This document shows positions 425-51,092 of a stretch of 64,000 bases of DNA, piece after piece. Every line of letters starts with the position of its first letter. Positions within the stretch are counted from its first letter, which is position 1. The DNA is taken from the IMG/VR virus record IMGVR_UViG_3300031867_000008, positions 76,957 to 140,956 of that record; one strand, 5' to 3'. Both the position numbers and the translations under genes were made by a program. The notes under the pieces are model-generated. The model was not told the DNA's origin, searched no databases, and saw nothing but the letters and a program-made list of their open reading frames with translations. The DNA comes from a virus. Its lineage: Duplodnaviria; Caudoviricetes.

Positions 425-1513
425 TCAATTCTTTATACTCGTAAGTATTTCGCAAGTCCTCACAAGCGTATTTACAAAATAAATAATATCTTCATCTCGG
501 AACGTTTCGTCAAACGATATTCTTATAGTTCCGTGTTCATAATCTTCTGGAAGGTTGAAACTCTTTACTGTTGGGCTTGCTTCAAGACTTTTGCTGTGAC
601 AAGCAGAACCAGTTGACACGAATATCTCTTTGCTGTCAAGAATAAGAGCAACACTTTCACCCTCGATACCTTGAATAGCAATATTCAAAATGCTTGGAAC
701 GTTGAAGTTTTTATTTTCAAGAATCTTGAAATCACATGGCATCTTGGCACATAGCTGAGTGATAAGTTTGTCTCTGATTATTTTGCAAGCCATTTCTTTT
801 TCTTCGCTGTAATTGTAGAGTTCCGCAGCTTTGCCTATTCCAACTATCGCAGGAACGTTTTCTGTTCCCGATCTGAGATTTGATTCTTGTCCACCACCAA
901 TAATATCTGAATGGAATTTCTTCGGTTCTTTTATATAGAGAACCCCAATTCCTTTTGGAGCGTGAAACTTATGACCGCTGAATGAAGCGAAGTCAACGTC
1001 AAGATGTTCAACGTCTATTGGAACTTTGCCGAAAGCTGCTGTCATGTCGGAATGAAAATAAGCATTGTTCATGTGAGTAATCTGCACTATTTCTTTTATT
1101 GGGAATATCATTCCTGTTTCACTGTTGACATACTGCCATGATAATAGTGTATCACTCATATGACAAATTTTTTGCTTCTGATTCTCATAACTTTCTTTGT
1201 CATAAACGATATGTCCTGCTCTCATTGATGGATGCTCGTATATTGAAGCGTAAACAGTATTCTTGCCAAAGAATCGCCTTACAAGATTATTGCTTTCCGT
1301 TGCTCCGCTTGTAAAGAAAATCTGCTCAGGCTCGGTATTGATCGCCTTTGCAAACTGTTCTCTCGCCTGCTTTATCGCCGCTTTAGCGATTCGTCCATAT
1401 TTGTAAGACGAACTTGGATTGCCGTACATACTAGAAAAATATGGTAGCATGGCATCAAGCACAGGTCTTGTCACTGGTGTTGTGGCTGAATTATCAAGAT
1501 ATAAACTCATCAT
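425..1513 (-). CDS. iscS: Cysteine desulfurase (IscS/NifS family)
   Basis: YLDNSATT, GNPSS, FTSGATESNN, SGHKFHAPKGIG (PLP lysine), STGSAC (catalytic Cys). Confidence 0.93.
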   Translation of the reverse strand: MMSLYLDNSATTPVTRPVLDAMLPYFSSMYGNPSSSYKYGRIAKAAIKQAREQFAKAINTEPEQIFFTSGATESNNLVRRFFGKNTVYASIYEHPSMRAGHIVYDKESYENQKQKICHMSDTLLSWQYVNSETGMIFPIKEIVQITHMNNAYFHSDMTAAFGKVPIDVEHLDVDFASFSGHKFHAPKGIGVLYIKEPKKFHSDIIGGGQESNLRSGTENVPAIVGIGKAAELYNYSEEKEMACKIIRDKLITQLCAKMPCDFKILENKNFNVPSILNIAIQGIEGESVALILDSKEIFVSTGSACHSKSLEASPTVKSFNLPEDYEHGTIRISFDETFRDEDIIYFVNTLVRTCEILTSIKN

Positions 1514-2140: not shown

Positions 2141-2950
2141 TTATTCTCCTTTATATCTAAATAGTTTTTCAACCGCCCTGCTCTTATCAGATGCGTTAAT
2201 GCTTCTGCTTACCTCTTGTTCCCATATACATTCAAAGTCATCGGGTGCTTGAAGTTCGCTTATGTAAACTATACATTTTCTGCTCCAAATTCTCATTGTT
2301 TCCCAAAAGTCATCATAGTCAAAGTTTTGGGAATTAGAGAATTGTTTTGTGTTTGCATAGGGTGGGTCACAATAAATTAAAGGTTTGTACTTTTCATTGG
2401 TGATTGCATAGCCGTCAAACCATCTATAATCGCCCACCATAAATTCGATGTCCTTTAAATTAGGAACTTGTCTTAGAAGATTGTCTTTTGCTTCTCTATA
2501 ATAATTTCGATAACGTAATCCGTTTTTTGTTTTTTCATAACCTGACTTAGCATAACCGCCATCATAAAAACGGGCATTATAACTTGCAAGAAATCCTATC
2601 GCTCCTAATTCCCACAATTCAAATTCTGACGAATTAAGAATTTCGTATTGTTCTTGCCACGGAGCTTTCTCAATTTTATAATAAACCGCTCTTGCTCTAT
2701 CATATAATTCTTTAGGAACTGATTCAGGTAATCCTCCCCCACTAATAACGTGTTTAAGAAGTGCCATAAGATATGGATTATAGTCATTGGCAATTTTTCT
2801 GCTGCAATTTATCTTATCTATAATCGAGCAACCACCACAGAATGGTTCTATGTAAACATTGATGTTGTTATCGTCTATCTCTTTCTGCAAAATAGGAACA
2901 ATGTATTTTGCTATTCTGCTCTTTGAACCCATGTATTTAATTGAAATCAC
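2141..2950 (-). CDS. DNA adenine methyltransferase (Dam/D12 class)
   Basis: KYMGSK, YIEPFCGG (SAM binding), YCDPPY (catalytic). Confidence 0.9.
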   Translation of the reverse strand: MISIKYMGSKSRIAKYIVPILQKEIDDNNINVYIEPFCGGCSIIDKINCSRKIANDYNPYLMALLKHVISGGGLPESVPKELYDRARAVYYKIEKAPWQEQYEILNSSEFELWELGAIGFLASYNARFYDGGYAKSGYEKTKNGLRYRNYYREAKDNLLRQVPNLKDIEFMVGDYRWFDGYAITNEKYKPLIYCDPPYANTKQFSNSQNFDYDDFWETMRIWSRKCIVYISELQAPDDFECIWEQEVSRSINASDKSRAVEKLFRYKGE

Positions 2951-3704
2951 GCTCCTTTTGTGTTGTGAATATTCTTTCCTTTGCTATCTCAAAATATTCT
3001 TCATTTAATTCCATGCCTATAAAGTGTCTGTTGGTATTTACGCAAGCGACCCCTGTTGAACCGCTTCCCATGCAATTATCTAACACCCAATCTCCCTTGT
3101 TTGTATACGTTTTAATTAAGTATTCCAATAAATCGACAGGCTTTTGAGTCGGATGGACACAGGTTGACGGATGAGGCTTTGAAAATGTTAAGATACTATT
3201 AGGATATTTTTCTGTACTCCCCTGTCGTTCATCATCGGTTATGTAAAAATCTCCATAATTGTTATTGGTGAATGTTTTATTTTTGTATGCCGAACCCTTG
3301 CTATGTAATGGAGAGCCTTGTGTAAATTGGGGATTGTAAGTAGGCAACTTTTTATAAAACACGGCTATCTGTTCATGCTGTCTCAATGGCATTCTTTTCG
3401 CATTAAGAAATCCAGTTTTAAGAACTTTGTCCCAAATTAAATCATAACGAAATTCTTTGCGATTACTATTGACTAAATCAATGAAGAATGTTCCTTGTGA
3501 AAATAGAACTATCGGAGTATCATCTTTAACAATTCTATGATATTCATTCCACAACTTGTCAAATGGTAAACAGCAATCTTTTTTATTATTCGTCACTCCA
3601 TAAGGCAAATCACACAAAATCATATCAATACTTTTGTCCGGAATTTCTTTCATTAGTTCAAGACAATCGCCTTGTTGTAACTGGAAGTGGCTAATTGGAA
3701 TCAC
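2937..3704 (-). CDS. Site-specific DNA methyltransferase (N4/N6, beta class)
   Basis: GDCLELM, ILCDLPYG, HPTQKPV, VLDNCMGSGSTG. Confidence 0.92.
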   Translation of the reverse strand: MIPISHFQLQQGDCLELMKEIPDKSIDMILCDLPYGVTNNKKDCCLPFDKLWNEYHRIVKDDTPIVLFSQGTFFIDLVNSNRKEFRYDLIWDKVLKTGFLNAKRMPLRQHEQIAVFYKKLPTYNPQFTQGSPLHSKGSAYKNKTFTNNNYGDFYITDDERQGSTEKYPNSILTFSKPHPSTCVHPTQKPVDLLEYLIKTYTNKGDWVLDNCMGSGSTGVACVNTNRHFIGMELNEEYFEIAKERIFTTQKERDFN

Positions 3705-3915
3705 TCTCCTTACTCAATTTACATTTCTTATTCCACAATCTGATTGCTCCCAAAAGAGTGAAACGAGCCTCATCATAATTAGCCGCTATAAAACCGCAGT
3801 CGTTACACTCTATAACGTAAGCATCTCTCAGATATAGATAGTGCGATTCACTTACGAATCTCGCTTTGCCCCTACCTTTGCATTTGGGACAAGGGTGTAT
3901 TTTATAGAAGTTTAT
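3691..3915 (-). CDS. Lar-like (restriction alleviation) Zn-finger protein with a probable ATA start (not in the track)
   Basis: 74-aa frame INFYKIHPCPKCKGRG...ECNDCG...EARFTLLGAIRLWN, paralogous to 48306-48533 (EARSTILGAIAVWN). GGAGG lies 8 nt before ATA, and no ATG/GTG/TTG precedes the CxxC motifs. Confidence 0.72.
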   Translation of the reverse strand: MNFYKIHPCPKCKGRGKARFVSESHYLYLRDAYVIECNDCGFIAANYDEARFTLLGAIRLWNKKCKLSKESDSN

Positions 3916-3930
3916 ATAAGTCGCCTCCGA

Positions 3931-4197
3931 TTACTTTTTATTCTCTATATCTGTTGTGTCATCGTAATAAAACGTTTCTACATTCTTCGTAAATGGACAC
4001 AGATTATTAACTAACGCTTTACACCTATGTCCAAGAGAAGTACATACCGAAAACGGGCAATCAATCCAACAAGCACCTTTTCCCGGTGTCCAGTCAATTG
4101 GTGCATCAAATCCGAACTCTACTCTTTGACCTATTGTTTGCTTCTTCGACTTAGTTATAATTGTTTTCTTTATAAATGTTGTTTTCATTTCGCTCAT
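3931..4197 (-). CDS. Hypothetical Cys-rich protein
   Basis: 88-aa ORF in operon. Confidence 0.65.
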   Translation of the reverse strand: MSEMKTTFIKKTIITKSKKQTIGQRVEFGFDAPIDWTPGKGACWIDCPFSVCTSLGHRCKALVNNLCPFTKNVETFYYDDTTDIENKK

Positions 4198-4202
4198 CTA
4201 CT

Positions 4203-4436
4203 TCACCCCGTCACAAATCTCTTAAACTTACCTCGCCTGTCAAACTCTATACCTAAATCGCCGTCAGCTAATATTGGATCAATCTCAATATAAATACGAT
4301 CAGGGTAGAGATAAACAAGATACTTACAACCGATTCCCTTGAATAGCTCTTTGAATTTCTCGTAATCTGTTGGACGAGTCTTTGGTGGCTTAACTTCGGG
4401 CATCGGTGGAGTTTGTGAAGGCTTTACATTAACCAT
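4203..4436 (-). CDS. Hypothetical protein
   Basis: 77-aa ORF; paralog of 1739-1906. Confidence 0.7.
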   Translation of the reverse strand: MVNVKPSQTPPMPEVKPPKTRPTDYEKFKELFKGIGCKYLVYLYPDRIYIEIDPILADGDLGIEFDRRGKFKRFVTG

Positions 4437-4810: not shown

Positions 4811-5989
4811 TCAATTACTTTTTATACCATTTTTAACAATCGCACTCAGAATCAATGCAACGCAATACAATGTTCCAATAAAATAGAACACTGTCATATA
4901 AGACCCACTGTGTCTATGAATAAACATTGAAAGCTGATTGCCTACAAGACCAGCACAGCCCCAAGCCGAAAGAATTAAACCGTGAATCTTGCTTATGTTC
5001 TTCATATCATAAATGTCTGCAAGCAAAGGAGCAATACAACTAAAACCAGCTCCGTAGCAAGCTGATATGATGATTAACGCAATCATTGAAAATCTGTGCG
5101 AGATTATAGATAAGATTACAGTCACTATTGAGATACAGAAAATTAAATAATATATATGTACTCTTTTCTTTAGTTTATCCGACACCGCCGAAAACACCAA
5201 TCTGCCACAACCATTGAACACACCCATGATACTTACTACTAAAGCAATCCATGCTGACTTAACATTAAGTTCTGTAAGCATTGGGCTTGCTATTGGAATA
5301 AGTGCAAGACCACAAGTTATATTTAGGAAGAAGAATAACCACATGGCTATAAACTTCTTGTCCTTTAACATAGTGGTTGCTTTAAAATCAGCATTTGATT
5401 TTGGCTCGATCCAGTCTTTTGGCTTCTGTAATAAGAAGTGTCCTATCATCATAGGAATAAAATAAAGCCCTGCAAGAATCAAAAACGTTGTTGAGATTGA
5501 AACTCTATTTAAAAGGAATGTAATTATTGGTGAGGCTACTGTTGAAGCAAACCCAAAAGCACAAACTGAAATTCCTGTTGCAAGACCTTTATTATCTTTA
5601 AACCAAAGCATTAAAGTTTTGACTGGACTAAGATAACCTAAACCGAGTCCAATGCCACCAATAAATCCATATCCAATGTAGAGTAAAGGCAACGATTTAA
5701 TATGTACTGCCAATGCAGTGAGCGCAAGCCCACCGCAAAAGCATACCGTACTTAACAAAGATGATCTGTGAATGTTTCTCTCTACAAAAGCCCCACCAAA
5801 AGCTGCGGATATTCCTAAGAAGAAAATCGCAAGTGAAAAGGCAAACTGTACAAGTGATTGAGATTTCCCAATATAATCTGAAATCGGTTTAGCGAATAAT
5901 GAAAAACTATAAACAGAACCTATACAAATATGAAGAAATATTGCTGGGATAGCAGCGTTCTTCCATTTATTTTGGGTTGCATTATTCAT
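4811..5989 (-). CDS. MFS transporter, oxalate/formate antiporter (OFA) family
   Basis: About 12 TM segments; CIGSVYSFSLF, YGFIGGIGLGLGY.SP..TL..WF.D.KGLATG, NGCGR...SAVSDK, CYGAGFS. Start placed at ATG 5989 behind a GGGGTGA RBS, overlapping the nrdG stop. Confidence 0.88.
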   Translation of the reverse strand: MNNATQNKWKNAAIPAIFLHICIGSVYSFSLFAKPISDYIGKSQSLVQFAFSLAIFFLGISAAFGGAFVERNIHRSSLLSTVCFCGGLALTALAVHIKSLPLLYIGYGFIGGIGLGLGYLSPVKTLMLWFKDNKGLATGISVCAFGFASTVASPIITFLLNRVSISTTFLILAGLYFIPMMIGHFLLQKPKDWIEPKSNADFKATTMLKDKKFIAMWLFFFLNITCGLALIPIASPMLTELNVKSAWIALVVSIMGVFNGCGRLVFSAVSDKLKKRVHIYYLIFCISIVTVILSIISHRFSMIALIIISACYGAGFSCIAPLLADIYDMKNISKIHGLILSAWGCAGLVGNQLSMFIHRHSGSYMTVFYFIGTLYCVALILSAIVKNGIKSN

Positions 5990-6533
5990 TGGCATCACCC
6001 CACAATACAATTCTTCTTTGTTTAAGAGACTTGTGTACATCTATTATTCTTTGGTTTGATGAACCTCGGAATGGAAGTGTTAAGTCTCTAAGTTTTTCGA
6101 TGTATTCGCCGTCAACTATAATATCACAGTTTTGTATTATGTAATACCAATAAACATCTCCCTCAGTGCTTATACGCAAACCATTTATTTCGCCAAAATC
6201 AGAATCGTGTAAGGTATAACCAGTATACAACCAAATTGTTTTACCAAGTATATACTTGTCTCTTATTTTATTAACAAGACTATAAACACCAGAAAGATTT
6301 TCGTCTGTGAGAGGTTCGCCACCTAAGATTGTAACTCTTTCGATATATGATCTATCAATTAAGTCTATGAATTGATTTTGTGCTTCATCAGTCCATTCTT
6401 TTCCACCATTGAAATCCCATGTCTCAGGATTGAAACAGTTTTTACAATGTCGATTACAACCTTGTACAAAAAGAGCAACGCCTATACCATCTCCATTGCT
6501 TACATCAAGATTCCTTATGCTTGCATATCTCAT
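5982..6533 (-). CDS. nrdG: Anaerobic ribonucleotide reductase activating protein
   Basis: MRYASIR..DVSNGDGIGVALFVQGCNRHCKNCFNPETWDF (radical SAM CxxxCxxC), LGGEPL, FRGSSNQR; GGAGG RBS before ATG 6533. Confidence 0.95.
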   Translation of the reverse strand: MRYASIRNLDVSNGDGIGVALFVQGCNRHCKNCFNPETWDFNGGKEWTDEAQNQFIDLIDRSYIERVTILGGEPLTDENLSGVYSLVNKIRDKYILGKTIWLYTGYTLHDSDFGEINGLRISTEGDVYWYYIIQNCDIIVDGEYIEKLRDLTLPFRGSSNQRIIDVHKSLKQRRIVLWGDANE

Positions 6534-6537
6534 GTAA

Positions 6538-8724
6538 TTATTCCTCCGAATCATGATTGTCAAGATGAACGTATCTCTCTAATATTTCTTCTGTTCTGCC
6601 TTGATTCCAGAAGTTAGTTCCTATATATCCACAGGTACGTCTTGCAACATTTAGCTTGCTTGTATTTCTATTACCACAATTGGGACATTCCCATATGAGT
6701 TTATTGTTTTCATCTATGATCTTTATTTCACCATCATAACCACAGACTTGACAATAATCGGATTTGGTATTTAATTCAGCGTACATAATATTGTTATAAA
6801 TAAATCTAAGTATCTTTATTACACCTTTAATGTTATTCTGCATATCGCAACACTCAATATAAGAGATAGCACCACCGGGACTTAATCTTTGGAACTCACT
6901 TTCAATAGCAAGTTTATCAAAAGGATTGATTTTTTCAAAAACTGGAATATGGTAACTATTGGTTATGTAATCACGGTCTGTTATACCTTTTACTTTTCCA
7001 AATCTCTTTTGAAGTTTCTGTGCAAATTTATAAGTAGCCGACTCTATGGGAGTACCATAAAGTGAGTAGTCGATATTTTCATTCTCTTTCCAAAGTTTAC
7101 ATTTATCATTAAGCCGTTGCATTACTTCTAAACCAAAGACTTTGCCTTTGCCGCCAGAGTGACTTTCGCCAGTCATGTATTTTACGCACTCATAAAGTCC
7201 AGCATATCCAAGGGATATAGTAGAGTAACCGCCATACAGGAGTCGATCTATTGGTTCACCTTTAGACAAACGACCTAATGCCCCATCTTGCCACATTATA
7301 GGGGCTGTATCAGATAACGTACCTTTTAATCTTTCATGCCTAACTCTTAGTGCTTTATGGCAAAGTTCGGTTCTTTCTTCAAAGAGTTTCCAAAATTCAT
7401 CAATGTCACCATGAGAAGAAAGTGCGAGGTCTACAAGATTAAGTGTAACTACGCCTTGATTAAAACGCCCATAGTATTTAGGATTGCCATGTTCATCAAT
7501 ATAAGGTGTTAAGAATGAGCGGCAGCCCATACAAGGGTAGCAATGACCATCGCCATTTTTGTCAACCTTGTATTCGAGCATTTTCTTTTCCGAGATATAA
7601 TCAGGAACCATTCTCTTAGCTGTACATTTAGCAGCTAATCTTGTAAGATAATAATACTTGCCGTATACATTGATATTATCTTCTTCAAGAACATAAAGCA
7701 ATTTAGGAAAGGCTTGTGTTACATATACACCTACCTCATTTTTAAGACCTACTATTCTTTGATTTAAAAATTCTTCAATTAACATAGCAAGTTCCGCTTT
7801 GTATTCCTCAGTTTCACCAAGATACATACAAACACTCAGAAATGGTGCTTGTCCATTAGTGGTAGACATTGAATTACATTGATAATTGAATGTTTGTACT
7901 CCATCTTCAATTTCTTTTCTTAAATCTTCTTTAGCATACTTAACGCAGTCATCAGCAGAAAAACCACGATCTGTGTACTTAATAAGGTAATTATTATAAC
8001 TATCTCGTACAAACGGAGCAAGTGCAGTTAGTGATACGGTTGCGCCACCATATTGACTGCTTGTTACGGCAGTAATGATTTGAGTAGCAATTGTCATAGC
8101 AGTAATTAACCTATGTGGTTTTTCTATCATGACACCATTGATTACAGTACCATTTTGTAGCATATCTTCAAGATTTATTAAGCAACAATTATTTATGTGC
8201 TGAACAAAATAATCTTGGTCATGAAAATGAAGTATGCCTAATTCGTCTGCTTCCTTCACATCTTCGGGCAAAAGAAATCGTTTGGTAATATCAGTGCTTG
8301 TCACACCAGCTATATAATCTCTTTGTACTGTAGCTCTACGGGGATTCTTATTAGAGTTTTCATTGTTCCAATAGTCATTAGTTCCATCAATCAATTCTTT
8401 AATGGTTTTATCGGTAGTATTACTTTCTCTCACAAGTTTTCTTTTATATCTATATGTAATATACGCTTTAGCTGTCTTTCTATCGAAATCAAGAAGGGCA
8501 TCTTCTACCCAGTCTTGTATTTCTTCTATGTCAATAGGAGTGTCATCGTCCGAATATTCACTTTTTACATAGCTTACGATCTTTCTTTCGATATATTCAG
8601 CGGCATTCTGATCGTTTTCTACTCCAACTTCTTTAAATGCTTTTTGGACAGCGTTTCTTATTTTGTTGCTATCGAACGGAACAACACGTCCATCTCTTTT
8701 CTTTACCTTTATTGATTCTATCAA
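6538..8724 (-). CDS. nrdD: Anaerobic (class III) ribonucleoside-triphosphate reductase
   Basis: N-terminal ATP cone (VKKRDGRVVPFD), NCC, MGCRSFL, TPIES, Zn CxxC..CxxC, RRTCGYIG glycyl-radical motif. Confidence 0.97.
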   Translation of the reverse strand: MIESIKVKKRDGRVVPFDSNKIRNAVQKAFKEVGVENDQNAAEYIERKIVSYVKSEYSDDDTPIDIEEIQDWVEDALLDFDRKTAKAYITYRYKRKLVRESNTTDKTIKELIDGTNDYWNNENSNKNPRRATVQRDYIAGVTSTDITKRFLLPEDVKEADELGILHFHDQDYFVQHINNCCLINLEDMLQNGTVINGVMIEKPHRLITAMTIATQIITAVTSSQYGGATVSLTALAPFVRDSYNNYLIKYTDRGFSADDCVKYAKEDLRKEIEDGVQTFNYQCNSMSTTNGQAPFLSVCMYLGETEEYKAELAMLIEEFLNQRIVGLKNEVGVYVTQAFPKLLYVLEEDNINVYGKYYYLTRLAAKCTAKRMVPDYISEKKMLEYKVDKNGDGHCYPCMGCRSFLTPYIDEHGNPKYYGRFNQGVVTLNLVDLALSSHGDIDEFWKLFEERTELCHKALRVRHERLKGTLSDTAPIMWQDGALGRLSKGEPIDRLLYGGYSTISLGYAGLYECVKYMTGESHSGGKGKVFGLEVMQRLNDKCKLWKENENIDYSLYGTPIESATYKFAQKLQKRFGKVKGITDRDYITNSYHIPVFEKINPFDKLAIESEFQRLSPGGAISYIECCDMQNNIKGVIKILRFIYNNIMYAELNTKSDYCQVCGYDGEIKIIDENNKLIWECPNCGNRNTSKLNVARRTCGYIGTNFWNQGRTEEILERYVHLDNHDSEE

Positions 8725-10646: not shown

Positions 10647-11330
10647 TCACATTCCTCTCTTAATTCTTTTTTGAGCAATCTCAAAATAGCTTTCGTCAAT
10701 TTCTACACCGATGAAATCACGGTTTAATTCAATAGCTGCAATTCCAGTTGAGCCAATTCCCATAAAAGGGTCAAGTACAATTTCATTTTCCAAAGATGAA
10801 TTGTCGATCAGTATTTTCATTAACTCAACTGGCTTTTCAGTATTGTGAAGATTTTGTCCATCCTCACCCTTAGTCTTTTTATTTGGTATTGAAAGAATAT
10901 CCGAAGTTCCACAATGGTTTATTTTCTTACCCTTGCCTTTTCGGAAGAAAAGTATATACTCAAAAGAACTCATGTAGTAATGTCCCATTATCTTATTACC
11001 TTTGCTCCAAATAAGGCTTTTGACAAACTTGAAACCATTTTGAGTAAACACGTTCAACATATGTATTAAGTTGATATGATTGCACATTACATAACAATGT
11101 GAACCATCTTTCAATACTCTGTAAAATTCAGGAGCATAAGATTCACAATCTATATTGTTATAGGTAAAGACTTTGCCTATCATAAATTCTTTTGATTGTA
11201 ACATTCCACCACTATTTCCTGCGTTTCCTCTGGAAGTAACTGGATAGGGGGGGTCAGTTACGATAAGGTCAACACTGTTATTAGGAATACTTTTTATTAT
11301 TTTTAGACAATTATCTTGAAATAATTTAAT
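10647..11330 (-). CDS. Site-specific DNA methyltransferase (N4/N6, beta class) with a probable ATT start
   Basis: The frame extends 42 codons upstream of the track ORF (IKLFQDNCLK...SVDLIVTDPPY) to ATT 11330, with an in-frame TAA two codons earlier; HNTEKPV and VLDPFMGIGSTG downstream. Confidence 0.88.
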   Translation of the reverse strand: MKLFQDNCLKIIKSIPNNSVDLIVTDPPYPVTSRGNAGNSGGMLQSKEFMIGKVFTYNNIDCESYAPEFYRVLKDGSHCYVMCNHINLIHMLNVFTQNGFKFVKSLIWSKGNKIMGHYYMSSFEYILFFRKGKGKKINHCGTSDILSIPNKKTKGEDGQNLHNTEKPVELMKILIDNSSLENEIVLDPFMGIGSTGIAAIELNRDFIGVEIDESYFEIAQKRIKRGM

Positions 11331-11350
11331 TTCTTATCACTCACTTTCTT

Positions 11351-12247
11351 TTAATAATTTGTAATCAGCACTTCTTTAGTTTTAAACTCTTTGTTTTTAG
11401 CTTGATAATTACAGTTATCATAATTGTAGTTCATCGGAATTAGATTATAGTCATACTTCTTAATCCATTCGATTAGAATATCATTAGTCTCGCCCTTATG
11501 TTCGATAACATTTGATAATGCGAATCTTGTGCCATAATTAGTTAGTTCGTTGAGAATATATAGCAAGGTTCTATCATCATTTTCAGACCAACCTCTAAAA
11601 CCTCTCTTACCATCATTATAAGCTGCACAGCCAAGTCTGTAAGGTGGATCACAATAAATGAAACTGTTGGAGTATTTATCAAGAATAGAGTAATCAAAGT
11701 CCACGAAATCTTGTTTTGAAAAATTGATGTTATGATTATTTAATAACTGATGGAATGCTATTAGTCCATCTTCATAAATCTCTCTGTAATAATATCTATC
11801 TTTACCAAAAGAGCTATTATACTCATGATTATTATTAAATCTAATTTGACGATTAAAGCTATAACAAGTTAAAAGAAATAAATCAATCGGACTTCTGTTA
11901 TTAGATTTGTTATACCAATTCCTATATTCTATAAACCCTTGCTCGTTCATTTTGCATAATTGAAATTTGACAATTTGTGAATGAATATAATCTCTTATCT
12001 CACATATATCATTTCGTTGTAAATATTCATAAAGCTCTATTATATGATAATTTATGTCATTCGCATAGGTGATTTTTATGCTTGGCAATTCATAATTGAC
12101 TGCAACATCACAACCACCACAAAACAAATCAACAAAACAATCTGTATCTTTTGGAAAATGTTCAAAAAGTTTGTCTAAGAGTTTATACTTATTTCCTATA
12201 TAATTCATGGGAGATTTAACATATGGTTTTGTCTTTTTATCTTTCAT
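11351..12247 (-). CDS. DNA adenine methyltransferase (Dam/D12 class)
   Basis: KSPMNYIGNKYKLL, FVDLFCGG, YCDPPY, EVLITNY. Confidence 0.92.
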   Translation of the reverse strand: MKDKKTKPYVKSPMNYIGNKYKLLDKLFEHFPKDTDCFVDLFCGGCDVAVNYELPSIKITYANDINYHIIELYEYLQRNDICEIRDYIHSQIVKFQLCKMNEQGFIEYRNWYNKSNNRSPIDLFLLTCYSFNRQIRFNNNHEYNSSFGKDRYYYREIYEDGLIAFHQLLNNHNINFSKQDFVDFDYSILDKYSNSFIYCDPPYRLGCAAYNDGKRGFRGWSENDDRTLLYILNELTNYGTRFALSNVIEHKGETNDILIEWIKKYDYNLIPMNYNYDNCNYQAKNKEFKTKEVLITNY

Positions 12248-12765
12248 ACACCACTCTCCTTAATTTTCAAATCCTCCCTTAATACTTCATAGATCACTGA
12301 ATCATGATACTTACCGTTGAACCAAGCTACTCTACACAGAGTACCAACTTTTCTGCCACCAAACTTCTTAATAAACCTATCGTACAGTTTAATAGCAGGA
12401 TTGTCGGCAAATGCAAAGAACTCCATTCGCTGCGCTCCATGCTCAAACATGGTTTTGATATTTGAAAGCACGTCAATTAGAAAAGGTATGTTGTTCTCGT
12501 TGAATCCTATAAGCCCAAAGTTCCTGAGCGACTTATTACCATCTTCGTAGTTGTAGGTGAAATAACCATCGACTTCTCCTTCGTTGTTTAAGTGAACGAA
12601 GTCTCTGCGCCAATAAGCGTTGTCGGGTATCTCAAACTCATTTCTGTCGTTTGCAAAATACCACTGATATTTCGGATCATACCAACAAGAAATCATCTTG
12701 CGTTTAAGTTCTTCTTTGTAAAGCTGTGCAGGCATGAGCAATTCTACCAACTCCTTACTGTACAT
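12244..12765 (-). CDS. GNAT-family acetyltransferase-like protein
   Basis: NPAIKLY...GGRKVG......NGKYHDSVIYEVL, a RimJ/RimL-like C-terminus. Confidence 0.65.
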   Translation of the reverse strand: MYSKELVELLMPAQLYKEELKRKMISCWYDPKYQWYFANDRNEFEIPDNAYWRRDFVHLNNEGEVDGYFTYNYEDGNKSLRNFGLIGFNENNIPFLIDVLSNIKTMFEHGAQRMEFFAFADNPAIKLYDRFIKKFGGRKVGTLCRVAWFNGKYHDSVIYEVLREDLKIKESGV

Positions 12766-12901
12766 ATTTTATCCAGTCTCGTATACTCTTGAAGAAAAGG
12801 CAAATTGTAGAGCCTATCTTCTGCAAAATATTTAAATCTTTATCAGACCAAACTAACTTGTATTTTGTCATATGTATATATCACTTCCTTACTGTTCTTT
12901 C

Positions 12902-13126
12902 TTAATTTCTAAGATGATGGTCTACAATTAAGTAAATCAATAATATCACCACGACTAACACCAAGGGAATCCATATTGGTGCAAGCACCCATAACCAAGA
13001 CCATTTTATGACCCCACAGAGTTTAAGTGCAATAAACACAATCGTAAGCAAACCACAAAATCCTATACCGCCTGATTGGGTAGACTTGTTGTTGTTATTA
13101 TTATCAGCCATTTTATCTCCTTTCAC
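12902..13126 (-). CDS. Small phage membrane protein
   Basis: GGIGFCGLLTIVFIALKL.GVI.WSWLWVLAPIW; start probably at ATG 13111. Confidence 0.75.
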   Translation of the reverse strand: MKGDKMADNNNNNKSTQSGGIGFCGLLTIVFIALKLCGVIKWSWLWVLAPIWIPLVLVVVILLIYLIVDHHLRN

Positions 13127-14411
13127 TATACTTTATACCTCAAAAAGTCCTCGCCATAAATTTCATTGACTGAATCAAACACATACCGCAATCCGAGTCC
13201 ATGAGAATTGCTTGTCCACAATTTTTTCGGATTCCAGTTCTTCCATTCTCCATCGTACTCAGGAGCATTTGGATCATAATAGGGATTGTCTATCCATTCT
13301 CCACCTTTTAAACAGAAGTCATATTGTTTTGGGTGAGTTCTTGCAAGTGCTTGTATTCTTGTTTCGCCTTTTTCTAAATGGACACCTAGTAGGCAGAAGA
13401 TGCAACCTGACCTTCTTACACCAGTTGTTTCTAACAATCCCTTTTCATTCTCTACAATATCGCCATAAACCGAACATATTTGAATATTGTATCTTCTTAT
13501 GTATTCAAGAATATCCTGTTCAGTCCAAAAACTTAATGGCTGAGAACTTGGTTTCTTTCCCTCAAAAGCGTTACAACCTGTTCTTATCCATGATTGTCTA
13601 CGCATAAGACTTTCTTCTGCCATAGTGCCAAGATAAGGTTTGTTATGACTTGCTCTCTGATAAATACCGATAGGAGATTTTTTCATAACATCACAACATT
13701 TGCCACTTATAAGAAAAGGTGTGTAAACCAAAGGCAACCATTTCTTCTTGTTAAACTTTGACTTAACTTTAACATCGTCATAGCTACCCAGAATCCCAAG
13801 GAGCTGTTTTCGTCTGTAATTCTCCTGCACTACATGAGTCTGTACTGTTGTTACAGTTGTCGATTCTTCTGCCAAGCAACTCTTGTCTCTTTCTGATTGC
13901 TGTCTTGAATTGCTCTGATGGGGGGGGGGATTTGGTAGTAACGCTTGTCGAGTAGTTCTTCTCTCCTGTGTTTCGTTTCCTTGAATCCTCTCTCTGCCCC
14001 CCCCTCAGAGGTATTGCTATTTCGTATTCTTCTTGCATAATAAATAGCATTAGCAACTTCTTTACTGATTAAAGGATAACCATAATTTCTTATGACGTTT
14101 ACAAAATTCATCTTAGGAGTCACAAACGTTGCGTTCTTACTTCTTGCGAATTTCTGAATTTCGGGATATTCAAGCCCTGTGTTGCTAAATACAACAGGAA
14201 GTTCAAACGTAGGGTCAATGGCGGCAAGAGTTTTCTTTACAAGGTCAAGAAGAACTGTGCTGTCCTTGCCGCCCGAGAACGATAGATAAACTTGACCCTC
14301 CCAAAAATTGAACCATTCTATAATTCTTGCTTGTGTAATTGCTATCTTGCGGTCAAGTGGCAAGACTTGCAGTTCTTTTAGTCGAGCTGCATCATGAATG
14401 TCGATTGGCAT
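13126..14411 (-). CDS. PAPS-reductase-domain protein, split by a frameshift at homopolymer tracts (N-part 13851-14411, C-part 13126-13875)
   Basis: N-part has the SFSGGKDSTVL PP-loop and NTGLEYPE; C-part has CCDVMKK, PLSFWTEQDIL, RSGCIFC. One extra base in the G8 tract (13997-14004) or C10 tract (13920-13929) of the coding strand gives a 428-aa fusion. Confidence 0.85.
13920..13929. repeat. G10 homopolymer (C10 on the coding strand)
   Basis: Read directly from the sequence. Confidence 0.9.
13997..14004. repeat. C8 homopolymer (G8 on the coding strand)
   Basis: Read directly from the sequence. Confidence 0.9.
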
Positions 14412-14906
14412 TTATTCATCTCCTTCTCTATCATCTATTTCTTTAAAACCTGTTTTGAATTTAACATTTCTAAAGCAATGTGTATTAACACTCGAAACCC
14501 ATAATAGGAAATTAGAATCGTTAAATAAACTATCAGACATAAGAATGTTTGCTGCTTTCTTACCTTTAAACTGTAAGGGATTTGGGTTTTCACTTGAATA
14601 CCAATGAATTTGAATATCTCTGTGACGATAAATTTCTTCTTTATTGTTTGGCGGCTCTGGAATTAACCAATCTATATAGCGAATATTAGGGAAATTTGCG
14701 ACTCTATATTCAAATCGTCTTTTCTCTAATATAGAAATGATTGATTCTATTACATTGTAAAAGTTGTCAAAATCGTTGTTCTTATCAATGTACACAATAA
14801 AGTTATCACCGAGTTCTTGGCAATAATTATCTATTAACAATGAAATATTATCTTTTGATATTCGATAATATCCATGCTCTTCGTTTATAAATGGTTGCGC
14901 ATTCAT
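14412..14906 (-). CDS. Hypothetical protein
   Basis: 164-aa ORF with AGGAG RBS. Confidence 0.7.
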   Translation of the reverse strand: MNAQPFINEEHGYYRISKDNISLLIDNYCQELGDNFIVYIDKNNDFDNFYNVIESIISILEKRRFEYRVANFPNIRYIDWLIPEPPNNKEEIYRHRDIQIHWYSSENPNPLQFKGKKAANILMSDSLFNDSNFLLWVSSVNTHCFRNVKFKTGFKEIDDREGDE

Positions 14907-14991
14907 AGCCTAATCTCCTATTTGTTCTTTTTACGTTTCTCCATCTCGCAAACCACATCTGCATAGAATTTATTCCATGTAGGTTTGTCTA

Positions 14992-15107
14992 TGAACTACT
15001 CACGAGCTAAAGCTCAATGAGCTTCTTGCTTCCTCGTCCTCGTAACCTACTAACTCCACAAGCGTATAAGTTCGGACAGTTCCTGCCCTACTTTATCATT
15101 ATCTTAT
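14992..15107 (-). ncRNA. IS200/IS605 right end / TnpB omega(re)RNA scaffold
   Basis: Directly 3' of tnpB: GGGCAGGAACTGTCC hairpin ... GAAGCTCATTGAGCTTTAGCTCGTGAGTAGTTCA subterminal hairpin, typical of IS605 right ends. The putative guide follows (TAGACAAACCTACATGG). Confidence 0.75.
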
Positions 15108-16214
15108 TTATCCTGCTACCCTTAATCCTTCATAAAGAATATTAACAGCAGCATTTACATCTCTATCATGATGCTCACCACAATTAGGACAAATCCACTC
15201 TCTTACAGACAAGTCTTTAGTCTCTGTATTCTTATAGCCACAGCAGTTGCACAACTGCGAACTTGGATAGAATTTATCAATTTGCACCACCTGTTTACCA
15301 TACCATTCAGCCTTGTAATACAACATTCTAACAAACTCACTCCAAGAAACATCACTGATAGATTTTGCAAGATTATGATTCTTCATCATATTACTTACTT
15401 GTAAATCTTCTAAGCAGATAATATCATAAGTCCTAATCAGTTCTGTACTCAGCTTCTGTAAGAAATCCTTCCTCTGATTAGTAACCTTCTCCCAAGCCCT
15501 CGCAAATCTCACTCTTGCCTTATCACGATTCTTACTACCCTTTGACTTTCGAGATAGTTGTCTCTGTAATTTAACAAGTTTCTTTTCAGACTTTGTGAGG
15601 TATTTAGGATTGGGTATCTTCTGTCCATAAGAAGTGATAGCAAATTCTTTTAAACCTAAGTCTATGCCTACTGAACAACCGGTTTTGGGTAAAGGTTGTT
15701 CATCATCTTTTTCAACAAGAACTGAAACATAATATTTACCGCTTGAAGTTTGACTGATCGTGGCTGACTTTATCTTGCCCATTATGTTAGGGATTCCATG
15801 AGCTTTAACCCATTTGAATTTGGGGAGTTTTATTTTGCGGTTATCAAAGTCTATTTCTATATTTGTACCAGTTATATTAGTTTTATAAGACTTTTTACTT
15901 ACCTTCTTGCTCTTGAATTTAGGAAATCCAGTATGTTCCTTAAAAAACTTTTGATAAGCAGAATCAAGATTATTCACCGCGTTTTGTAAAGAAAATTTAT
16001 CAACTTCTTTAAGCCATAAATATTCTTGTTTTAACACTCTATTAACATAATTCACTATATCAAATTTAGATAAAGAAATATTCTCATTCTTATACTTATC
16101 AATTCGATAAGCTAAACATTGATTATAAACAAACCTCACACAACCGAAAGTTTTCTGTAATAATATTTCCTGTTCTTTATTAGGGTAAAGTCTAAACTTA
16201 TAGCTTTTATACAT
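15108..16214 (-). CDS. tnpB: RNA-guided endonuclease TnpB (IS200/IS605 family); no tnpA
   Basis: [11 protein letters not shown]...[12 protein letters not shown], RuvC GIDLG / LEDL / DRDVNAA all intact, Zn finger CxxC...CxxC. Confidence 0.95.
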
Positions 16215-16242
16215 TTGCTATCACTTCACTTTATTTTCCCAC

Positions 16243-16797
16243 TCATTCGACTAACGCCCTTTCGTATTTATGTAGTTCTCTCAGTTCCAGCTTACTCGGC
16301 AGAAAATCTCTACAAAAGTAAGCTGAACCAAAAGCTGTTCCCTCAGTAACGTGCTTCATATCACCGTTCATAAAGAACCCGACTCTTGAATCGAAGCAGA
16401 GCATTTGGATTTCATTATTAAATATCTTGAACCTTGACTTTCCTTGAATACTATTGCAAGGGAGCAATAAGGCAAATGGTTTATTGAAATCAAACGCTCT
16501 TTCGAGAACTTTATCTTTCTTACTGAATGGTGGGTTGCTTATCATGATGTCCCAATGATCGGGTTCGCATTTGAAAAAATCTTTGCCTTCGTCAATGTGA
16601 GAGTGAACAACTCTCATGCCCCCCCCCCCTGTGAGGACTTGAACAAATGCGGAATATTCTTTATCGAATGGACACCAAATAATTTTGGACTTGTCTGTGA
16701 GAAATTCAAGGAGAGGGTCTACGGCATAGAAAGGTGTGTACATTTCATCACCCGAACTTGTTCTATTAGACGTTAAGTAACCTTTATTCAACGGCAT
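16243..16797 (-). CDS. Putative adenine DNA methyltransferase (NPPF) with an in-frame G11 tract
   Basis: DEMYTP, IWCPFD, GKDFF, ISNPPFS; the GGGG peptide is encoded by G11 (C11 at 16619-16629). Confidence 0.8.
   Translation of the reverse strand: MPLNKGYLTSNRTSSGDEMYTPFYAVDPLLEFLTDKSKIIWCPFDKEYSAFVQVLTGGGGMRVVHSHIDEGKDFFKCEPDHWDIMISNPPFSKKDKVLERAFDFNKPFALLLPCNSIQGKSRFKIFNNEIQMLCFDSRVGFFMNGDMKHVTEGTAFGSAYFCRDFLPSKLELRELHKYERALVE
16619..16629. repeat. C11 homopolymer (G11 on the coding strand)
   Basis: Read directly from the sequence. Confidence 0.9.
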
Positions 16798-17080
16798 TAT
16801 TACTTCCTTTCTCAATTCCTATTGCGTTTTCTTTCTCCCAATCCCATTTATCTTCATTCCATCCAGAACGTTGTCTTAACCCTAAAGCTGTAAGGTTGAT
16901 TACATTATCACTCATACGATAATCGTCATAATAGGTGTCCACCAAAACTTTTGCATTTCCTTTGAACTTCGTTACAACACATTCTTCAAAAGAAGCCCGA
17001 TAGCCACGAGAATTTCTGCCAGAGAAAAGGATCGTGTCACCAACGCTTATTTCATTACCGAGATAATCTTTCATCATCAA
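16784..17080 (-). CDS. Hypothetical protein
   Basis: KDYLGNEISVGD phage-type N-terminus; AAGGGG RBS. Confidence 0.7.
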   Translation of the reverse strand: MMMKDYLGNEISVGDTILFSGRNSRGYRASFEECVVTKFKGNAKVLVDTYYDDYRMSDNVINLTALGLRQRSGWNEDKWDWEKENAIGIEKGSNNAVE

Positions 17081-17233
17081 CCATCCCCTTTATGATAAAA
17101 CCTCGATTTTATAGGTGTTTATTGTCCATTTTTATGGACAATAAAGCTAAATTTTAGCAATTTTTAAAATATTCGCTAAATAACTGTACAATTATTTGTA
17201 CTATAAATCATTTAACCATCAACTATTTTTGGC

Positions 17234-17500
17234 TCACGCCCCCCCTTGCATTGTGCTAAGAGTAGGAGCAAGATAGTCTTTATCATACACCCTACGGATT
17301 TGTTCTTTACCTTTAATATCAAGCATACCCATTACAACAATTTTTGATTCGGTGTTACCACCACAGCCAATACCATGCAGAGTAGGAGAAATACCTTCTT
17401 GTGAATAAACTCTATGTCTTGATTCAATCCATTCAGGTTTGTCAAGGCTTCCCATTGTTTCAATTTCATTTGCGTGAACACTATTATTTTTAGTATTCAC
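17234..17500 (-). CDS. C5-methyltransferase target-recognition-like modules (two), ending at a G7 tract
   Basis: RVYSQEGISPTLHG and RVYDKDYLAPTLSTMQGG; changing G7 (17239-17245) to G6 or G9 would continue as REPKIVDG. Confidence 0.7.
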   Translation of the reverse strand: MNTKNNSVHANEIETMGSLDKPEWIESRHRVYSQEGISPTLHGIGCGGNTESKIVVMGMLDIKGKEQIRRVYDKDYLAPTLSTMQGGA

Positions 17501-17742
17501 GCTTGCTGAAAATTTTCGTCAGAACACTTGTAATTAGGATTATACTGACTGCGATATAAGTGTTCAAATATTAACTCAACACAGTTACTCACGAGCGAAT
17601 TTCCTGCTTGTTTGTACATCTGTGTATCTGACATTCCTATGTTTTTCACTTTCTGAATATCTTCATCTGAAACACTCATAAGTCTTAAACATTCTGTTGG
17701 CGTAAGTTTTCTAATTCTAAATTTCTTCTTATCAATACTCAT
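17497..17742 (-). CDS. C5-cytosine methyltransferase C-terminal fragment (motifs IX-X)
   Basis: FRIRKLTPTECLRLM, YKQAGNS. Confidence 0.88.
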   Translation of the reverse strand: MSIDKKKFRIRKLTPTECLRLMSVSDEDIQKVKNIGMSDTQMYKQAGNSLVSNCVELIFEHLYRSQYNPNYKCSDENFQQA

Positions 17743-17746
17743 TGGC

Positions 17747-17890
17747 TTATTGCCCCCCCCCCGTTGCGGTTACTAAAGTTGGTGCTATATTCTGTGGATC
17801 ATATACAGCTCCATGTCCAGCTTTAAAGGCGTTTTCACATTGACTGTCATATATTGTTCCAAGAACATTAGGTTTACTTCTGTTAGTCAT
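17747..17890 (-). CDS. C5-methyltransferase TRD-like module ending at a G10 tract
   Basis: GAVYDPQNIAPTLVTATGGG; AAGGA RBS before ATG 17890. Removing one G from G10 (17753-17762) fuses it in frame to motifs IX-X. Confidence 0.7.
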   Translation of the reverse strand: MTNRSKPNVLGTIYDSQCENAFKAGHGAVYDPQNIAPTLVTATGGGQ

Positions 17891-17928
17891 TGTTATCCTT
17901 AACCCTCTCAATTCTATACAAACAACAA

Positions 17929-18144
17929 TTACCACTTGCCATTATGGTAGGACAAATCCCCCCCCACTTCCATATCACACAGAACGATTATTTTAGGTTG
18001 ATTTTTATAATAAGTACTTAATACAGTCGCTGATACTCCAAGCGCAGACAACACTTCTGAGTGTTGATGAATTTTATTAGAATCAGGAATCAATCTGCCT
18101 ATCAACATGGGTTTATGAGTTTCGCTTTTCTGTTTTAGATTCAA
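17929..18144 (-). CDS. C5-methyltransferase TRD-like module with a G8 tract
   Basis: GVSATVLSTYYKNQPKI; GGAGTGA RBS before TTG; G8 at 17958-17965. Confidence 0.65.
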   Translation of the reverse strand: MNLKQKSETHKPMLIGRLIPDSNKIHQHSEVLSALGVSATVLSTYYKNQPKIIVLCDMEVGGDLSYHNGKW

Positions 18145-18571
18145 TAGTTATCACTCCTGTCATTGATTGATTTCCAAAACCACGCCAATCTCTTGCTTCT
18201 AAAGTAGCTGCATAATCAAGTTTCTTATTAAACTGGGTTGCATAATTACTTAGTAACACACCCTGATTAGTTGTTGAACTCAACAACACCGGTGCCGTCT
18301 CGTCTAAAATTTGAAATTCCTGCATCATATCTTGCCTTGATGCAGTTTGCTCGGTCAATTGCTCTTGGTTCGTTAAGTGTGAGGTCGATTGTAATTGCTC
18401 TCTCTCTCTCTCAATCAAAAGATTATCTTTTTGAACAGTAGAAATTGTATTTGTCATACCATCATTTCTCGGAACAGCCTCACGATAATCATTAAAGCCA
18501 TGCTTTATCTTGCCGCTTTCATAGTCTTTTCTTAGCGACTTACCCTGTTCGGTGCGCTGCATTTTAAACAC
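18113..18571 (-). CDS. C5-methyltransferase TRD-like modules with a (GA)7G tract
   Basis: TNTISTVQKDNLL and AATLEARDWRGFGNQ modules; dinucleotide tract at 18398-18412. Confidence 0.7.
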   Translation of the reverse strand: MFKMQRTEQGKSLRKDYESGKIKHGFNDYREAVPRNDGMTNTISTVQKDNLLIEREREQLQSTSHLTNQEQLTEQTASRQDMMQEFQILDETAPVLLSSTTNQGVLLSNYATQFNKKLDYAATLEARDWRGFGNQSMTGVITIESKTEKRNS

Positions 18572-19557
18572 ATACTATCCTTTTGAACAGTAGTCAATGC
18601 GTTTGCGACACTTTCGGTTCTTACTTCAATATTCTGCTCAGTAGAATTATCATCGGTATATCTACCTCTCGAAACTACAGGGTAATCTTCCTCTGATAAA
18701 GTTCCGTTAGCAACAAGTTCATCAATTAACTTGTCAGCTTTTTCGTTATTTATGTAATACTTTTCATCTACTACATCATCAAGAACATCTTTGAGTCTAA
18801 GACCATTATCGAAAGGCTTTGGGAAGGTCATTTTGCCTGTGTCTATATCCTTGCGAATTGCTATTCCAAATACTCTTTCGCGATTTTGAGGAACGCCGCA
18901 GTTCTTAGCATTGAGAACTTCGTAATAGGTATTATAATCAAGCTCATTAAGCACCTCTATTAGTTTCTGAAAATCAGGCATAAATTTCTTTGAAATTAAG
19001 TTTTTGACATTTTCAAAAAATAAATACTTCGGAGCTTTATTATCGGTAACAGCTTTTCTTAACAATCGAACTTGTTGCCACAACAATGACGATCTTGTTC
19101 CGCTACCCTCTGATAAGCCCTTCATTGCTCCCGCGACAGAAATATCCGTGCATGGCCACGAAACTGTCCATAAATCAGCATAAGGTAATTCCTCAATACT
19201 GCTTATGTCTCCAAGATTGTTGGATAACTTCATAGCAAGCCAATACTTTTCAAGTTCCTTACTTTTACTTTTTGTTTTCTTGTTCCAATCGTAAGGCTTG
19301 TTCTTCTTGAAATCAAATCCTATATTTCTATCTAATAGGTCTTGCGCCATTTGTTCTCTACTCGGATAATCGGAATAATTCTCGATCATTTCGTTAGTCA
19401 AACCGTTATGTATAGCCGCATATGAAACCATTACATCTTTATCAATATCAGAAGTACAATTTACTGTTAGGTCAAACAATCCCGTATTCATAATTCCTCG
19501 CTCTTGGTTTCCTAACCCTGAGAAAAGAACATTTGCTGACAATTTAACCTTTTCCAA
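18532..19557 (-). CDS. dcm: C5-cytosine DNA methyltransferase, catalytic N-terminal part (motifs I-VIII plus first TRD)
   Basis: LFSGLG, SWPCTDIS.AG (catalytic PC), FENVKNL, PQNRERVF, ANALTTVQKD; lacks motifs IX-X. Confidence 0.92.
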   Translation of the reverse strand: MEKVKLSANVLFSGLGNQERGIMNTGLFDLTVNCTSDIDKDVMVSYAAIHNGLTNEMIENYSDYPSREQMAQDLLDRNIGFDFKKNKPYDWNKKTKSKSKELEKYWLAMKLSNNLGDISSIEELPYADLWTVSWPCTDISVAGAMKGLSEGSGTRSSLLWQQVRLLRKAVTDNKAPKYLFFENVKNLISKKFMPDFQKLIEVLNELDYNTYYEVLNAKNCGVPQNRERVFGIAIRKDIDTGKMTFPKPFDNGLRLKDVLDDVVDEKYYINNEKADKLIDELVANGTLSEEDYPVVSRGRYTDDNSTEQNIEVRTESVANALTTVQKDSMCLKCSAPNRVSR

Positions 19558-50650: not shown

Positions 50651-51092
50651 TTTCCTCCTGTATATTATAATTATTTATTTCTATATACTCCAATTCATCC
50701 CAGCCCTTAGCATAAAACCAGTTAGTCCAAAGAGACTTACTATAGTGTTTCTTTTTTCTTATGGTTGCATTGTATGTTACTATATCTTTATATAGCTGAT
50801 TTTGCACTGTAATATCCTTGTTTTCTTTAAGTAACATAATATAGACATTACGACAGTCTCTTGCTTCTTCAACTTCAAATTTACCGCCAGCATTTGCGTG
50901 TAGAATTAACACCGAACAAGTAGCGATTATTATAAAGGATATTATCCCAGAAATAATAGATAAAGTCTCAAAAAAATCACTCGTTACAATTCTTTTCTTA
51001 TCATTCAACTCGTTGTTATAACATATTTTGGCTATGTTATAAAATACAACAGCCAGAATAAAAAGTGTTACTCCTATAATACACCAAATCAT
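50640..51092 (-). CDS. Hypothetical membrane protein
   Basis: Two N-terminal TM segments. Confidence 0.7.
   Translation of the reverse strand: MIWCIIGVTLFILAVVFYNIAKICYNNELNDKKRIVTSDFFETLSIISGIISFIIIATCSVLILHANAGGKFEVEEARDCRNVYIMLLKENKDITVQNQLYKDIVTYNATIRKKKHYSKSLWTNWFYAKGWDELEYIEINNYNIQEENDE

Follow-up and report, generated by a model that had tools for sequence, protein, structure and literature searches.

A probable phase-variable contingency locus in a PAPS-reductase-like gene of gut and rumen phages

Introduction

The T-even phages T2 and T4 undergo reversible frameshifts at agt and at other homopolymer loci, and in T2 the switching of agt, which encodes a DNA glucosyltransferase, allows escape from TgvAB at the price of sensitivity to McrBC (Gomez, Barrick and Waters, bioRxiv 10.1101/2025.10.21.683753). 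In Campylobacter phages, poly-G tracts in receptor-binding genes give rise to reversible frameshifts (Sorensen et al. 2021, Cell Rep, pmid 34107245). Phage contingency loci are already known, and the locus described here is a variant of that kind: a PAPS-reductase-like gene, interrupted by slippage-prone repeats, in a 64,000-nucleotide stretch (bases 76957-140956, hereafter the window) of IMG/VR record IMGVR_UViG_3300031867_000008. The record is that of a 140,956-bp phage with direct terminal repeats, is rated complete and has a G+C content of 35.5%.

The locus resembles those of the T-even and Campylobacter phages in that repeats within a coding gene give reversible frameshifts (with mixed progeny in the published cases), and the switched gene of T2 encodes a DNA-modification enzyme. 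It differs from them in that its repeats are longer (G8-G10, C7-C10, (GA)5-15 and (AC)5-13 here), in that two or three repeats appear to act together within a linker, predicted to be disordered, in the middle of a catalytic domain, and in that no frame of the inter-repeat DNA contains a stop, which allows several ON genotypes that specify different peptides. The enzyme family is also a different and uncharacterised one, and switching is read here from natural alleles. A more distant parallel is provided by bacterial phasevarions, in which Mod and HsdM/HsdS are switched by coding-sequence repeats and several such loci cluster per genome (PMC5909438, PMC7383803). Those are host genes that control regulons or restriction-modification, with repeats usually near the 5′ end, whereas the present switch is virus-borne, has its repeats in mid-gene and affects an enzyme that is not a methyltransferase.

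As to the enzyme, BrxP, SspD and DndC are PAPS-reductase-type phosphorothioation enzymes, and the architecture of BrxP and SspD has been described (PMC12914056). The phage gene product shares with them a PP-loop domain and a CC...CxxC cysteine pattern, and a cysteine desulfurase is encoded in the same genome; in contrast, it gives weak matches of 14-57 bits that are mostly N-terminal, no DndD/DndE, SspB/SspC or BrxC partner and no DUF4007 domain were found, and the gene stands alone among variable neighbours. Phages of Vibrio crassostreae encode a fusion of a PAPS-reductase domain with Dam, for which anti-Dnd activity and a host trade-off have been established experimentally (Piel et al., bioRxiv 10.1101/2021.05.05.442762). 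Both cases involve a phage-borne PAPS-reductase domain, and in the window a Dam-class methyltransferase gene lies 0.9 kb downstream of the gene (11351-12247); the Vibrio phage protein differs in being a fusion and is not described as phase-variable, and we liken the two by description. Our literature search returned no earlier description of repeats in phage PAPS-reductase genes.

Results

An earlier note on this DNA, made from the letters alone, had described the gene as one whose N- and C-terminal halves are out of frame with each other around two homopolymer tracts, G8 and C10. Three-frame translation places the N half in frame 1 and the C half in frame 3, and both tracts are present on the gene strand at the positions given there (Table 1). 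The two halves belong together: on the PF01507 profile the N half covers positions 2-46 and the C half positions 62-161, scoring 32.2 and 28.7 bits against a gathering cut-off of 22.5, and on phrog_424 they occupy positions 142-231 and 231-376, contiguous at 231. Since the halves abut on the family profiles, the frame break sits in an insertion relative to the family core. As it stands, the window allele, G8/(AG)4/C10, is OFF, with a predicted truncated product of 186 amino acids. We also considered, and rejected, a split enzyme with a separately translated C half: there is no ATG before the CC motif, the sole earlier start being a TTG at 13875.

The words of the record occur only in bovine and other animal gut metagenomes, and a single bovine run (X1) holds 99% of them and is the probable source. 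A Logan contig from this run covers 11200-16263 at ~33x depth with zero differences from the window; since a second, independent assembler gives the same G8 and C10, the OFF allele does not stem from faulty assembly. Runs of 8-10 identical bases are nevertheless prone to error, and another tract of the window (17753-17762) is two bases longer in the Logan assembly of the same sample, which lends something to the view that the tract lengths are sequencing or assembly errors in a gene that is really intact. We hold this to be very improbable, given the agreement of the two assemblies and the ordered variation in frame that more than 40 independent contigs of other samples show at this site, dinucleotide repeats included. 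The earlier note had itself allowed for an error of this sort with no tract variation among homologs; what we find instead is a reproduced sequence and homologs that vary.

Tract lengths are not the same in closely related strains. Each sample is represented by one contig consensus, and alleles were compared between samples or strains. In two runs from two other bovine studies (X2 and X3) a strain about 94-95% identical to the window (a rough estimate from the listed differences) has one C fewer at 13920 and ten extra (AG) bases at 13987; the net change of +9 makes it a different OFF allele. Exact-pattern scans for the tract flanks in viral_contigs and metagenome_contigs found no near-identical strains, and an INPHARED search by DNA found no similar phage record; a close ON strain was recovered instead by a protein search with the C half. 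The protein (P0185) is intact, 427 amino acids long and 95% identical. Its gene comes from another run (L066); there the switch region is 96% identical to that of the window, with the repeats G9/(AG)3/C9. Relative to the window this is a net change of -2, which restores the frame. This natural allele bears out the earlier calculation that any pair of tract changes summing to +1 (mod 3) would restore a protein of ~428 amino acids. As for the switch itself, which the note had ascribed to two tracts, G8 and C10 do both vary, but a third repeat, (AG)n, varies as well.

The ON alleles also differ in what they encode between the repeats. Between the tracts P0185 is translated in what is frame 2 of the window, and past them in frame 3. 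In a sister clade, (AC)5/G8 (L003) is OFF, while (AC)11/G6 (L067 and L069) and (AC)13/G8 (L068) are ON, and the two ON types differ in the frame in which this inter-repeat DNA is read, so that their peptides are unrelated.

The same site is variable far beyond these strains. The earlier note had suggested an alignment of phage homologs around the insertion, and among 62 related loci that we fetched from viral contigs the repeats lie directly after the conserved helix EAIYYARRIR, with all three frame states represented. In rumen-type relatives the repeats are poly-G or poly-C of 7-10 bases, as many as three in one gene, together with (GA)n; in ~30 human-gut phages of roughly 135 kb they are (GA)5-15, to which the (AG)4 of the window corresponds. 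Loci without repeats are almost always in frame (15 of 16), and repeat-bearing loci are spread over frames 0, 1 and 2. In the human-gut clade the frame follows the repeat number modulo 3: (GA)5, 8, 11 and 14 are ON, whereas a one-base shift goes with (GA)7, 10 and 13 and a two-base shift with (GA)9, 12 and 15. Two sublineages are offset from this rule by an extra T, and the OFF frames meet a stop within a few codons of (GA)n. Among protein-identical sequences some alleles are ON and others OFF. In a quick maximum-likelihood tree (IQ-TREE), genes with repeats are scattered among genes without, and the well-supported branches require the repeats to have been gained or lost at least four times.

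An out-of-frame gene may also be a decaying one, frameshifted in mutable tracts and on its way to being lost, its repeats having no adaptive role. The window allele is out of frame, as are ~60% of the repeat-bearing relatives, and one relative (L022) has a linker insert of ~1 kb. This explanation appears highly improbable to us. The ratio of nonsynonymous to synonymous substitution rates (dN/dS) is about 0.02-0.15 in each half, including for the OFF/OFF pairs L023/L038 and window/L003, at dS values from 0.45 to about 2, indicating by sequence comparison that purifying selection acts strongly on both halves, OFF alleles included. This contradicts decay and implies that OFF states are transient. 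Among the related loci, disruption outside the linker is confined to L051 and L052, which have a frame change inside the C half; moreover, ON and OFF alternate among sequences with identical proteins, and the (GA)n lengths keep to the modulo-3 rule. Taken together, the tract differences between strains, the occurrence of relatives in all three frames and the constraint on OFF alleles uphold the earlier proposal of ON/OFF phase variation with variant ON states, and make a repeat-driven switch very probable.

A different use of the same repeats would be programmed recoding, either instead of DNA switching or on top of it, with RNA polymerase slippage on G8/C10 or a -1 ribosomal slip on the proline CCC codons making the OFF state a leaky, low-level one. 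Long homopolymers are slippery sites for both polymerases and ribosomes. In addition, frame 3 is open wherever a -1 shift from frame 1 would be productive, and OFF consensus alleles are common despite the strong constraint on the gene. Recoding nonetheless strikes us as improbable, because tract lengths differ in the DNA of near-identical strains and natural ON alleles exist, because the human-gut OFF frames stop a few codons past (GA)n, and because a dinucleotide repeat is no classical recoding site.

Table 1. Features of the PAPS-reductase-like gene, its repeats and its linker (window coordinates)
Feature	Position	Strand	Remarks
Whole gene	13126-14411	minus	N half in frame 1, C half in frame 3
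N half, 186 aa, frame 1	13851-14411	minus	ends at TAA 13851-13853 in the window allele
PP-loop SFSGGKDS, N half	14259-14282	minus	sequence motif
Helix AIYYARRIR, N half	14022-14048	minus	conserved motif before the switch site
C half, 249 aa, frame 3	13126-13875	minus	three-frame translation
KSKFNKKKW, C half	13738-13764	minus	motif
CC motif GKCCDVMKK, C half	13678-13704	minus	motif
GCNAF, C half	13564-13578	minus	motif
CxxC motif RRSGCIFC, C half	13393-13416	minus	motif
Repeat 1, G8 on the gene strand	13997-14004	minus	G9 in ON strain L066
Repeat 2, (AG)4, one base past G8	13988-13995	minus	(AG)3 in L066; (AG)9, +10 nt, in X2/X3
Repeat 3, C10 on the gene strand	13920-13929	minus	C9 in L066, X2 and X3
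Stretch free of stops in all three frames, 155 nt	13852-14006	minus	spans the three repeats and modules A and B
Module A, HRREELLD, frame 1	13947-13970	minus	matches family linker motif 1 (T..KRxELLGxR)
Module B, RKRQELLG, frame 2	13871-13894	minus	second copy of linker motif 1
Module C, YRRKQLLG, frame 3	13795-13818	minus	matches linker motif 2 (WRRxxLLG); always read with the C domain

The DNA in which the repeats lie is itself unusual. According to the earlier note, all three frames are free of stops between the tracts and beyond, which would be unlikely by chance in such AT-rich DNA. The stretch measures 155 nt, and of the 17,045 stretches of this kind in the 141-kb genome, both strands counted, only one is longer. 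Dinucleotide shuffling of its sequence gave one at least as long in 21 of 20,000 cases, or in 5 of 20,000 with the tracts held fixed, and shuffles of the whole linker reached the open length of the window in 2 of 3000. Seven relatives with multiple repeats have three-frame-open stretches of 158-240 nt, and such lengths were attained in 12-96 of 3000 shuffles; where a locus has a single (GA)n or no repeat at all, the open stretch is no longer than shuffles give.

The linker would tolerate such changes of sequence well. In an AlphaFold model of the closest in-frame relative (L002, run with a 16-sequence alignment), both domains have predicted local distance difference test (pLDDT) values of ~90 and linker residues 122-222 values below 50, so that the linker is predicted to be disordered. 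Its length ranges from ~30 to 130 residues across the alignment, in which only the two loose motifs of Table 1 are kept. Inserts occur in this part of the gene and in the C half. The ~1-kb linker insert of L022 (L022:1950-3000) contains a small C5-methyltransferase-like open reading frame (ORF) with DLCGGSGSW and PPC motifs, broken by a C9 tract. In the human-gut relatives L056-L061 an insert of 0.4-1.1 kb (about 3363-4426 or 3363-3731) lies in the C half between query residues 157 and 158, and could be an intron or mobile element.

The RRxxLL-type motif that the earlier note had seen once in each frame was located in all three (modules A, B and C). The starts of the modules are spaced exactly 76 nt apart. 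They are only weakly alike at the DNA level, and Tandem Repeats Finder reported no repeat in 13700-14100; we therefore do not claim a recent tandem triplication. The proposal that the frames supply alternative internal peptides stands in so far as ON alleles use different inter-repeat frames. It fails for module B, which cannot be joined to the C domain through the repeats of the window because it is offset from module C by one base with no repeat in between; in a repeat-poor relative (P0189), module B is in frame with module C. The natural ON protein P0185 has neither module A nor module B, and a role of the one-motif-per-frame pattern in function is thus unsupported.

A stronger version of this idea would be that selection has shaped the multi-repeat, three-frame-open linker into a "frame buffer" that does more than turn the gene on and off, with two or three repeats placed around stop-free spacers so that one slip offsets another. 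In that event a population would hold several ON isoforms with wholly different linker peptides, of the sort seen in P0190 versus P0195 and in P0185 versus the canonical path, and these isoforms could differ in target choice, in partner binding or in recognition by a host sensor or inhibitor. We consider this unlikely, but if true it would amount to protein diversification by frame choice inside an enzyme.

What the enzyme does can be narrowed down in part. Besides the PF01507 scores, the PP-loop SFSGGKDS is invariant in 16 relatives, as are C240, C241, C337 and C340 (L002 numbering), a CC...CxxC set like those by which APS reductases and DndC bind a 4Fe-4S cluster, the cluster being putative here. 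With the model of the ON relative as query, the best Foldseek matches were CysH and APS reductase (E 3e-5, TM by target 0.55-0.60); CysD was also among the best sequence or fold matches, followed by TtuA, LarE and FAD synthase. None of the narrower families fits. The cysH, APS_reductase and PRK02090 models score 16-29 bits against NCBIfam cut-offs of 154-235. Members of the CysH family have a C-terminal catalytic cysteine in an ECGLH-type motif. No such motif was found in the C half or in the 16-sequence alignment, and the C terminus reads ...NEIYGEDFLRYKV. PADLOC models of DndC score 14-18 bits over the N-terminal 40-50 residues only, SspD models 17-31 bits, and BrxP models 36-57 bits over profile positions 117-196 of 779 only. 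By sequence, then, the product is a stand-alone enzyme of ~428 amino acids in the PAPS-reductase / PP-loop ATP-pyrophosphatase superfamily. Of the earlier label of a PAPS-reductase-domain modification enzyme, the superfamily stands, and DNA or nucleotide modification finds no support in the family models. The family counts 2958 cluster representatives at E <=0.001, which makes it a large one. It occurs in phages of Ruminococcus, Clostridium, Clostridioides, Enterobacter and Vibrio, where the annotation is always PAPS reductase only; cluster names give only "PAPS reductase/FAD synthetase", and PHROGs places the family among auxiliary metabolic genes.

The genomic surroundings bear on the same question. 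Annotated DNA methyltransferase genes lie on both sides of the gene in the window (2141-3704, 10647-12247 and 18532-19557), and in human-gut phages the gene lies among replication genes. A cysteine desulfurase gene of the NifS/IscS/DndA-like kind is present at 425-1513 (minus strand; PF00266 209 bits, NifS 325, DndA 249, all below the equivalog cut-offs), and the genome of the nearest large relative (L003) has one too. Clustering of the DndC type was not seen, PADLOC and Pfam finding no dndD- or dndE-like neighbour. The ORF of 164 amino acids directly upstream (14412-14906) was considered as an obligate partner and rejected, because no family model matches it and the X2/X3 strain lacks it. Of the genome's seven G/C runs of at least 8, six fall within 13920-17965, two of them in the PAPS-reductase-like gene and one in ORF 16243-16815.

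The switch could thus be real and the enzyme no DNA modifier at all. It would then be a PP-loop enzyme that serves metabolism or acts on RNA and is encoded by an auxiliary gene, with sulfur assimilation, tRNA thiolation and cofactor adenylation as examples of what it might do, in line with the best matches listed above, with the PHROGs class and with our failure to find a DNA-binding domain in the enzyme or a Dnd/Ssp partner. We give this a real but minor chance. It has to contend with the low scores of the CysH and APS-reductase models and the missing ECGLH-type motif, with the methyltransferase genes on both sides and the phage's other long G/C tracts nearby, and with the proven anti-Dnd role of a phage PAPS-reductase domain; furthermore, an ON/OFF hedge makes more sense for a defence-related trait. 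An enzyme of sulfur- or adenylation-type DNA modification, or of counter-defence, is our tentative preference, held at somewhat less than even confidence.

Several further observations concern the surrounding genome. The X2/X3 strain lacks an IS605-type TnpB element (14992-16253; TnpB ORF 15108-16214) and the 164-residue ORF (14425-14928 missing), and where the window has the Dam gene (11348-12265) it carries 811 different bases, which points to a variable island in this part of the genome. Further G/C tracts lie upstream of the TnpB gene at 16619-16629 (11 bases), 17239-17245 (7), 17753-17762 (10) and 17958-17965 (8). The first, a G11, is in frame inside ORF 16243-16815 and has three bases fewer in run X2; the third is the one that differs between assemblies. 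The longest homopolymer of the genome, a G14, lies outside the window at genome position 50738-50751. At 11247-11253 a C7 on the gene strand is in frame and encodes the PP of a TDPPYP methyltransferase motif, in a frame that reaches upstream of the ATG start given in the ORF list (11204). At 5982-8724 and 4811-6040 (both minus strand) the phage also carries the anaerobic ribonucleotide reductase genes NrdD and NrdG and an MFS transporter gene, in keeping with an anaerobic host.

Discussion

Collectively, we think it probable that this is a phase-variable contingency locus in a PAPS-reductase-like phage gene, for which we propose a defence-related role. In a clade of gut and rumen phages, a long linker, predicted to be disordered, is inserted between the two halves of the catalytic domain and has gathered repeats that are prone to slippage (G8, (AG)4 and C10 in the window). 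During replication, slipped-strand mispairing would alter repeat length and so move the C domain in or out of frame, any net change of +1 (mod 3) turning the window's OFF allele ON. A slip at one repeat could be compensated at another, giving several ON genotypes with different linker peptides; such compensation is possible because the DNA is free of stops in all frames and the linker tolerates any sequence. Switching would hedge between hosts in which the activity protects the phage and hosts in which it is costly or sensed. Our inference of function draws on two precedents, the switching of T2 agt between TgvAB and McrBC and the anti-Dnd gene with a PAPS-reductase domain in Vibrio phages.

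A number of points weigh against this explanation. With one consensus per sample, taken from contigs, we infer switching from natural alleles, and ON alleles make up about a third to 40% of the sampled consensus sequences, which unselected drift of the repeats would give likewise. Two relatives with two tracts (L005 and L010) do not have an unusually open linker by the shuffle test. As for function, the models of CysH, CysD, DndC, SspD and BrxP all stay well short of their cut-offs, and what they match is mostly the PP-loop region at the N terminus; PADLOC and Pfam found no DndD, SspC or BrxC-type partner among the adjacent genes; and no flanking gene is conserved across the relatives, so that no partner can be deduced from the neighbourhood. 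Finally, the desulfurase gene is 12 kb away and is absent from three complete human-gut relatives that carry the (GA)n gene, and the desulfurase could equally serve the phage's NrdG or its Fe-S needs.

Contingency loci in phages are a recent discovery, made in Campylobacter and T-even phages, and the present locus would show the principle at work on a large scale in uncultured gut and rumen phages. One enzyme family appears to have repeatedly gained poly-G/C, (GA)n or (AC)n at a single structural site, with ON and OFF alleles circulating among otherwise identical genomes. This marks a widespread, uncharacterised PAPS-reductase-like phage enzyme as a trait worth hedging, most likely one of defence or counter-defence, and its natural ON and OFF alleles offer a clean genetic handle on what the enzyme does. 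For annotators, many of the "half" PAPS-reductase ORFs in viromes may be switch states rather than fragments. The stop-free linker with its multiple repeats may, for its part, be a compact natural design for tuning switching and for tolerating frameshifts.

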